64,000 nucleotides of DNA. Source: Octopus vulgaris (taxonomy: Eukaryota). This document shows, piece after piece, positions 9,807-11,880 of this stretch. Below the pieces are notes generated by a model. It was not told where the DNA came from. It ran no database searches and saw nothing but the letters and a program-made list of their open reading frames with translations. A program made the translations under genes and the position numbers. How positions within the stretch are numbered: position 1 is the stretch's first letter; each line of letters begins with the position of its first letter. The stretch covers positions 992,001 to 1,056,000 of the forward strand of contig OX597839.1 in NCBI GenBank assembly GCA_951406725.2. The letters are read 5' to 3'.

Positions 9807-10433
9807 GTAGTGATTAAAAAAATAACTATCTAACCGTGCTCCTTCTTGATCACTATATCGTATATATTTCTATTTTCACACACGACGAATGGAAGTATAT
9901 CGTAATGCTACCGACTCTTCGGTAACTCTGACGGTGAACGAGCTCTATAATGTTCTCTGCTACGTTCCTAGTGGAAAGTGGAATATGTCTTACATATACA
10001 TACATACATACATACATACATACATACATACATACATACATACATACATACATACATACATACATACATACTTACATACACATATATATACATATGAATA
10101 TATATATATATATATATATATATATATATATATATATATATATATATATATATATATATATATATATATATATATATATATATATATATATATTAATTAA
10201 GAGTAGAAATCAATATTTATCAATTAAAACTAGTGGTCTAGCATATTAAAAAAGAATCCGAAGGTTAAATCTTTATATATACCAATTAAGGACTGAATAC
10301 GAAAAAGTGGACACTCAACATGCTAGATATAGACGTCAAATCGCCATTCTCCACAAAAGATTATGTTCTCAGATCAAACTCAACACCAACCCAAGCAATA
10401 AACAAGTGAAAATATACGAAAAACAATACTTAT

Positions 10434-10498
10434 CCATGTACTGAATCAGTTTCCACTATTATTATCCGTAAGGATACCTGTAGTCTTCGTCAGCATGG
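10434..10498 (-). ncRNA. Type I hammerhead ribozyme
   Basis: CCATG-CTGACGA-[stem II with ACTA/TAGT and TATCC/GGATA]-GAAA-CTGattCAG-TA-CATGG; GUA cleavage triplet; stem II closing pair imperfect. Confidence 0.75.
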
Positions 10499-10968
10499 CC
10501 GATATAAATGCAATCTGCTGAACTAGATGCAAAAAACGATACCGGAGTATCATCATGTGCGTAAAGTTCAACCAATTACCTTCGAATGTATATTTCAAAT
10601 GCCTTCCACCTTGGCGCGTTGAGACCCGAAGAAAATAGCCTGCAGCTAATAATTAGCAGCAGTCAATTTATCGGTTAGAGAACATATTTAATCTTCGGAT
10701 TCTTTTTTAATATGCTAGACCACTGGTTTTAATTGATAAATATCGATTTCTACCCTTAATTAATTTTATAAAAAAATAAATATGTTCTCTAACCGATAAA
10801 TTGACTGCTGCTAATTATTAGCTGCAGGCTATTTTCTTCGGGTCTCAACGCGCCAAGGTGGAAGGCATTTGAAATACACATTCGAATGTAATTGGTTGAA
10901 CTCTACGCACATGATGATACTCCGGTATCGTTTTTTGCATCTAGTTCAGAAGATTGCATTTATATCGG

Positions 10969-11033
10969 CCATGCTGAAGAAGACTACATGTATCCTTACG
11001 GATAATAATAGTGGAAACTGATTCAGTACATGG
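10969..11033 (+). ncRNA. Type I hammerhead ribozyme
   Basis: CCATG-CTGAAGA-...-GAAA-CTGattCAG-TA-CATGG; the two copies differ at the free N7 position. Confidence 0.75.
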
Positions 11034-11880
11034 ATAAGTATTGTTTTTCGTATATTTTCACTTGTTTGTTGCTTGGGTTGGTGTTGAGTTTGATCTGAGA
11101 ACATAATCTTTTGTGGAGAATGGCGATTTGACGTCTATATCTAGCATGTTGACTGTCCACTTTTTCGTGTTCAGTCCTTAATTGGTATATATATATATAT
11201 ATATATATATATATATATATATATATATATATATGTATACATATATATATGTATATATATATATGTATATGTATATGTATATATATATATATATATATAT
11301 ATATATATATATATATATATATATATATATATTTATTTATTTATTTATGTACACACAAACGCATACTGTCTGCGGTGGGTAAATTGTCGCCATTTATATT
11401 TTTAGTTTGGCGCATGCGTATTGATTGCTTTTGTTTTTTGTGGACTACACAGTATAGCAGGTTCTGTTGTGAGAAACACAGCACCATGACATAATTTATT
11501 CACTCAGCAATTAAGAAACGACATGCTGTACTGCTTGGCATTCACGCCAGAAGATCCAATACGAATATTTCATAGTATATGGCTGTCAAACCGAGGACAA
11601 TGCAGAGGATTTGGAAAGAATTGGATGAGCCTAATGGTGATTACGAAGTTTTTTTGAGTGATCAGAACTTTAGAGCATCAAGTATTTAGATAATCTTACT
11701 TAAGATAACCTTACTGCGTGGCGTTCAATCATATAATAACATTAATAATAATAATAATAATAATAATAATAATAATAATAATAATAATAATAATAATAAT
11801 AATAATAATAATAATAATAATAATAGTAGTAATAATATATATATATATATATATATATATATATATATATATATATATAT

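Follow-up and report, generated by a model that had tools for sequence, protein, structure and literature searches.

Of the systems described so far, the animal "non-LTR retrozymes" come closest to the element considered here, a pair of hammerhead-bearing units in the window, by which is meant the whole 64,000-nucleotide stretch of Octopus vulgaris DNA that was analyzed. In the accessible parts of two reports, such retrozymes are noncoding units with one type I hammerhead each, show head-to-tail junctions within a family, and are proposed to have a Penelope-like element (PLE) as helper (PMC7229834; bioRxiv 10.64898/2026.07.22.740005); the present element is alike in each of these points and in its GC content of 35%. 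Its unit of 511 nt falls within the 51–972 bp range given for the class, although it is longer than the 150–400 bp first described, and the same report ties non-LTR retrozymes to "pLTRs" and reserves the term "active" for loci in which two or more consecutive tandem units carry a complete HHR (bioRxiv 10.64898/2026.07.22.740005). In contrast to such tandems, this locus consists of two single units placed head-to-head, and with the two units inverted it is an inserted copy rather than a source array. It differs further in that its hammerhead is of the PLE "min-HHR" type, lacking the conserved closing pair at this locus.

Insertions of PLEs themselves provide a second point of reference. The available descriptions include inverted 5′-truncated copies, a "tail," and a bias toward TA (PMC8557442), with head-to-head the most frequent of the inverted forms (PMC3846280). 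The element shares with these insertions an inverted, 5′-truncated head-to-head copy, an extension at one end, a (TA)n target, microhomology at the 5′ junction, and two start sites (PMC8557442, PMC3846280, PMC11167929), whereas it has no ORF, a longer tail, arms of almost exactly one unit, and no match to the PLE of the window. In Schistosoma mansoni, min-HHRs also occur in pairs on opposite strands, 100–700 bp apart; as far as the available text of that work goes, these pairs were read as truncated PLEs without junction analysis (PMC4209133), whereas here the arms, start sites, and joint have been mapped. Both the class of element and the head-to-head layout are already known, and the inverted pLTR arrangement that the initial annotation of this DNA had mentioned for PLEs is indeed in print (PMC4209133, PMC8557442, PMC3846280).

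Within this known class, the 511-nt unit is a new family. It offers a clean case linking protein-free hammerhead repeats to the marks of PLE insertion (inversion, tail, and TA target), and these marks are seen in two unrelated hammerhead families at one paralogous site. In the "twin priming" of L1, two target-primed cDNAs are united at their far ends by microhomology; the present case differs from it in the lack of poly(A) priming, in a template that would be a repeated or circular unit, and in arms that do not abut on one RNA but would leave a 79-nt overlap or a gap of ∼95 nt.

Anatomy of the element and its ribozymes

The element spans 10192–11186, with (TA)n on each side, and its noncoding unit of 511 nt is composed of a 410-nt segment B, a 79-nt segment A, and linkers (Table 1). 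The minus arm (10690→10192, 499 nt) has the order B, linker 1 (10 nt), A, and the plus arm (10686→11186, 501 nt, or up to 508 nt if the TA common to the target is counted) the order A, linker 2 (12 nt), B. The arm map bears out what the initial annotation had read from the letters, namely two units of ∼510 nt in head-to-head, permuted order (B then A on the minus strand, A then B on the plus strand), with both 3′ ends against (TA)n and a short ATTTA overlap near 10687. The overlap at the 5′ ends is exactly 5 nt, the unit sequences differing on either side of it. The arms differ at 13 of 489 common positions (identity 97.8% in B and 75/79 in A), and the element contains inverted arms of 410 bp. 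The outer ends are unlike, A at one side and B at the other, and as different sequences they form no terminal inverted repeats; both 3′ ends sit in TA repeats, where a TSD cannot be read.

Table 1. Features of the head-to-head element and of the elements compared with it in the window
Feature	Position	Strand	Remarks
(TA)n tract on the left, 47 units, with target at minus-arm 3′ end	10099..10192	.	
Segment A, minus arm, 79 nt; with linker 1 forms the 89-nt "tail" past the proximal start site	10192..10270	-	3′ end 247 nt past cut site
Linker 1, rich in TA, 10 nt; joins B to A head-to-tail	10271..10280	-	Similar junction in DNA runs
Segment B, minus arm, 410 nt	10281..10690	-	
Type I hammerhead, PLE min-HHR type	10434..10498	-	N7 = C, extra A after A9, G10.1 opposite G11.1; H17 at 10439
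5-nt microhomology uniting arm 5′ ends	10686..10690	.	
Segment A, plus arm, 79 nt	10686..10764	+	
Linker 2, 12 nt, A/T only, A-to-B junction	10765..10776	+	Missing from minus arm
Segment B, plus arm, 410 nt	10777..11186	+	3′ end lies 158 nt beyond cut site; as many as 7 more nt (to 11193) common to linker 1 and TA tract
Type I hammerhead, plus arm	10969..11033	+	N7 = A at 10978 (family C); G at 11013 (family C); H17 at 11028
Right (TA)n tract; target at plus-arm 3′ end	11186..11331	.	
Third hammerhead element, ∼1.5 decayed units, single orientation	∼39190 to 38520	-	3′ end in TA
5′-Truncated PLE in TA tract	44407..45775	-	C-terminal GIY-YIG, CX2-5CxxC linker, 3′ region with decayed hammerhead
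Comparison element, 491-nt hammerhead unit, head-to-head	47828..49573	.	Arms 938 and 811 nt (1.91 and 1.65 units); 2-nt overlap 48764-48765

The longest ORF that begins with ATG within 10192–11186 is 52 aa, and no ORF with RT and GIY-YIG is found inside the element, which is thus not an autonomous PLE. The predicted fold of the sense strand of the unit has a z of −2.96, with 1 of 100 shuffles equally good, and that of the plus arm a z of −5.1 (25 shuffles). Linker 1 looks like a possible TATA box, and a TATA-box-like stretch has been noted for pLTRs (PMC3846280).

Each arm holds a single type I hammerhead with stems I, II, and III, and with N7 = A in the plus arm or C in the minus arm, in agreement with the first reading of the sequence. 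With the structural scan, the window gives six motifs of hammerhead shape, against none in any of 20 versions shuffled in 200-nt blocks, and neither the scan nor inspection by eye reveals a second, antisense hammerhead in segment A. Against Rfam, no hammerhead reaches the gathering score anywhere in the window, and the element shows none even at E ≤ 5; weak hairpin matches at E ≤ 5 in the element, below gathering score, were dismissed as chance. As the hammerhead cut site lies in the middle of each arm, both cDNAs appear to have been copied through an uncut site.

The marks listed for PLE min-HHRs in the accessible text are an additional nucleotide separating position 9 from 10.1, a G10.1–C11.1 pair, a palindromic helix III, and a helix I of 4–5 bp; the hammerhead of the 511-nt family, with its extra A after A9 and its G10.1–C11.1 pair, follows this pattern (PMC4209133). 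At the locus, G11.1 stands opposite G10.1 in both arms, and the pair that closes stem II is broken. The imperfection of this pair, which the initial annotation had pointed out, is real in both arms but does not extend to the family, in which position 11013 is C in 1550.5/1550.5, 3448/3500, 51/51, and 53/53 of the depth in four runs (99–100%). It is a trait of this locus or subfamily, not of the 511-nt family in the runs examined, and may be one of the subfamily, since the runs may come from other species or subfamilies. To judge by the conserved pair that is broken, G11.1 probably weakens self-cleavage; tandem neighbors could nonetheless cut in dimer form.

Family copies and the paralogous site

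Parts of the plus arm were found in 20 sequencing runs from 10 studies under five organism labels, the best run having 0.44 of the words. Four of the 24 listed runs, none of which is on record as RNA, were examined in detail, all as contigs: the DNA runs X1 and X4, together with X7 and X14, for which the status as RNA is a guess. Such contigs show neither strand, RNA ends, nor circles, and their summed depth is not read as copy number. With 1428 and 1386 family contigs in the two DNA runs, the 511-nt unit belongs to a dispersed multicopy family. The head-to-tail joint from B to A is present in X1 and X4, and in X7 (short contigs), and its presence in DNA runs indicates that tandem family copies exist as DNA. 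The initial annotation had held that "both junctions of a circle" are present at the locus; both are there, but because the head-to-tail B-to-A junction exists as DNA, they are no evidence for a circle.

Other family copies likewise end at A against (TA)n, behind 10761 in X1 (four contigs) and behind 10770 in X14; recurrence of the B end in other copies is ambiguous because linker 1 itself starts with TA. Another head-to-head joint, 10687 to 11119, is seen in X14, where one contig at the margin of the examined stretch carries it. The joint of the locus itself, 10686–10690, is not among the matches listed in the four runs, where single-copy joints need not assemble.

Comparison with the family also bears on the common origin of the arms. 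Both share four states (10745, 11013, 11077, and 11080) that are missing from at least 93% of the depth in both DNA runs. Among the matches listed, the plus arm is off the family state at 5 of the 13 arm differences (10950, 10978, 10989, 11068, and, less clearly, 10877), and another 5 (10692, 10744, 10754, 11153, and 11169), judged by a loose-end consensus, are apparently private to the minus arm; the other 3 are unclassed. The shared states together with the arm-private changes indicate that the arms derive from one sequence type and then decayed separately.

In both DNA runs, the summed contig depth is ∼100 times as great across the B-to-A joint (11077–11193 and 10686–10835) as over the ribozyme part. 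In the predicted fold, this joint-spanning stretch contains a long-range helix; it may be a module common to many subfamilies, perhaps one for RT recognition, or may reflect 5′ truncation. An exact 21-nt search of viral contigs gave no matches, and a lone metagenome-contig match (L001) in such a search, 23 nt only, was dismissed as chance.

Most of the window is made up of a large inverted duplication (∼0.2–16.8 kb against 57.8–40.1 kb, or 191–16806 against 57763–40118, mostly 85–96% alike) and a direct duplication (20194–26846 against 31818–38519, 92–98% alike). The TA tract that takes the element at 10192–11186 in one paralogous duplicate takes the array at 47828–49573 in the other, and the nearest unique flanks match at 98% and 94%. 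From this collinearity with the paralogous copy, the element is recognized as an insertion into the TA tract. As the window contains 26 TA tracts of at least eight units, two insertions into one paralogous tract suggest a favored site. The window yielded four inserts of hammerhead or PLE type, and in all of them the 3′ ends lie within TA tracts.

The array had been described as having the same geometry as the element. It is indeed head-to-head in TA, but it belongs to a different family, with arms and overlap of other lengths (Table 1), and blastn gives no match between its 491-nt unit and the 511-nt unit. Its units are ∼99.5% alike, its minus arm is 44 nt and its plus arm 171 nt short of two laps, and its 3′ ends lie 131 and 237 nt past its own cut site, with a tail of 106 nt. 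The array is the younger of the two elements, and its stem II closes with A-U and has a long extension.

Route of insertion and form of the template

The element is best explained as a nonautonomous hammerhead retroelement, a non-LTR retrozyme with a pLTR-like unit, that was inserted by the RT-endonuclease of a TA-targeting PLE, a reading to which a probability of roughly 0.85 may be assigned. On either strand of the palindromic (TA)n, the PLE protein would make a cut and prime synthesis, with one cDNA starting at a proximal site, the end of B, and the other at a distal site, the end of A. Both cDNAs would read past the uncut ribozyme site, and their 3′ ends would then anneal at 5 nt and be filled in, with the arms decaying separately later. 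By analogy with PLE insertions, the "circular permutation" would most simply be the known PLE tail, with RT starting at two sites that lie 89 nt from each other. The two head-to-head loci examined (10192–11186 and 47828–49573) have a like layout, with proximal and distal starts 158 and 247 nt past the cut site in this element and 131 and 237 nt in the 491-nt family, although tails of 89 and 106 nt stand against the 30–40 nt published. In vitro, according to the available text, AT-rich DNA is cut on both strands, and extended on both, by a PLE protein that starts at two internal RNA sites, which define the genomic tail; the protein is predicted to be a dimer, ribozyme cleavage is not required, and uncut RNA is the main substrate (PMC11167929). 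The proposal that two cDNAs were joined by microhomology in the manner of PLEs, on a template that spans the cut site as either a circle or an uncut tandem RNA, is supported by these comparisons. No blastn match of the 511-nt unit to the 3′ region of the single PLE of the window was found.

Head-to-head arms could also arise from a single cDNA that folded back, or at the DNA level, if an array already in place were inverted or underwent a template switch. Self-priming on an antisense template has been suggested as an alternative route to head-to-head PLE repeats (PMC3846280), and the 5-nt overlap is also compatible with template switching in replication; such origins are nevertheless improbable here. 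Each arm has family sequence missing from the other, linker 2 in the plus arm only and the end of linker 1 in the minus arm only, so that neither arm was copied from the other, and both outer ends stand against TA at family-type ends with flanks that are not rearranged. The least probable of the explanations considered is that of a foldback DNA transposon whose palindrome is fixed, or of an assembly artifact, each of which the initial annotation had named as a possible refutation. The 410-bp inverted arms would fit such an origin, as would the lack of the locus joint among the matches listed in the four runs, but a foldback DNA element is excluded because the outer ends are unlike, and the family shows head-to-tail DNA junctions and another inversion point. 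An artifact is unlikely because of the arm-private changes among the 13 arm differences and the flanks collinear with the paralogue; the unrelated 491-nt family, moreover, has the same layout. Neither objection survives these comparisons.

As the form of the template, an uncut tandem transcript is given an even chance. Rather less credence attaches to a monomeric 511-nt circle, produced by ribozyme cutting and ligation, of which the insertion would be the genomic footprint, with two PLE RTs primed on opposite strands of a single broken TA tract, at two separate sites of the circle, and each running one lap before halting just short of its own primer. Counted from their own starts, the plus arm lacks 3–10 nt and the minus arm 12 nt of a full lap, each having run past the start site of the other, and just 3 of 380 possible 5-nt microhomology pairs give one-lap stops (6 of 380 with ±12 allowed); the minus arm of the second element approaches two laps, the 511-nt unit folds well, and in other animal retrozymes the abundant form of the RNA is circular (PMC7229834). 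This one-lap pattern, however, was seen post hoc at a single locus, the plus arm of the second element measures 1.65 units, and both stops lie in A/T-rich linkers, which may favor joining for other reasons. The G11.1 of both arms, with its probably weaker self-cleavage, the occurrence of the head-to-tail junction as DNA, and the preference for uncut RNA in vitro (PMC11167929) also speak against a circle. Half of the share given to tandem RNA falls to a form of twin priming on one linear tandem RNA, itself somewhat doubtful, in which the RT from the proximal site would meet a second complex primed at the distal site of an upstream unit, push it back over 60–80 nt, and stop. The arm primed proximally comes to its end within the tail, between the start sites, in this element as in the second, with overlaps of 79 and 63 nt (chance ∼0.17 × 0.22 = 0.04), and one side of the joint in X14 likewise falls at the start of A; the four arm-shared states are such as one template would yield. 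That pattern, too, comes from two loci only, and twin priming leaves the one-lap length of the minus arm to chance (13/511 phases). The X14 joint comes from one contig at the margin of the examined stretch, and a uniform source array, such as the alike units of the second element exemplify, or a subfamily outside the runs would explain the shared states equally well.

Circles as templates have been proposed for hammerhead elements (PMC4209133), as have circular templates and PLE helpers for non-LTR retrozymes (PMC7229834). The accessible literature, in which this step was proposed in 2014 and 2020, yielded no demonstration of a circular-RNA template, and a search with thin coverage of subscription journals turned up no paper that treats the 511-nt family or uses arm length to test the form of the template. 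Distinct arm-length distributions are expected from a circle, from twin priming on tandem RNA, and from random truncation, so that the template models would be separated cheaply by one assembled genome that contains a high-copy family. If the reading as a circle is true, head-to-head arm lengths become a genome-wide readout of the form of retrozyme RNA, circle or uncut tandem.

Other elements of the window

The 5′-truncated PLE at 44407–45775 exemplifies the likely helper class. Its paralogous tract, 13065–13148, is empty. In 31 longer relatives of this fragment, the region is C-terminal in 30 and the linker motif is present in all 31; the combination of a C-terminal GIY-YIG with CX2-5CxxC fits Neptune or Nematis in the available account, in which the motif is also proposed to guide microsatellite targeting (PMC8557442).

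At E 0.05, blastn matches none of the three hammerhead units to one another or to the PLE 3′ region; by alignment, the first (511-nt) and third hammerhead elements show a short likeness in the core. The third element lies at a rearrangement point, its left flank corresponding to 25997–26846 and its right flank to 22666–23610. The motif CTT(A/G)ATT occurs within ∼10 nt of four of the six true 3′ ends (10192, 11186, 47828, and 38520), which belong to three unrelated hammerhead families, and is missing at 49573 and at the PLE end.

Repeats of other kinds are also present. Fragments of non-LTR retrotransposon ORFs (RVT_1, with zf-RVT below cut-off) lie at 55128–55874 and 62191–63304 (−), a 134-bp minisatellite forms two blocks at 30543–30832 and 31280–31719, and imperfect MITE-like palindromes of ∼240–260 nt are found at 9165–9402, 50227–50464, and 17492–17752. 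A dispersed SINE-like repeat, which may be an octopus SINE, occurs at 9604–9784 and in several further copies.
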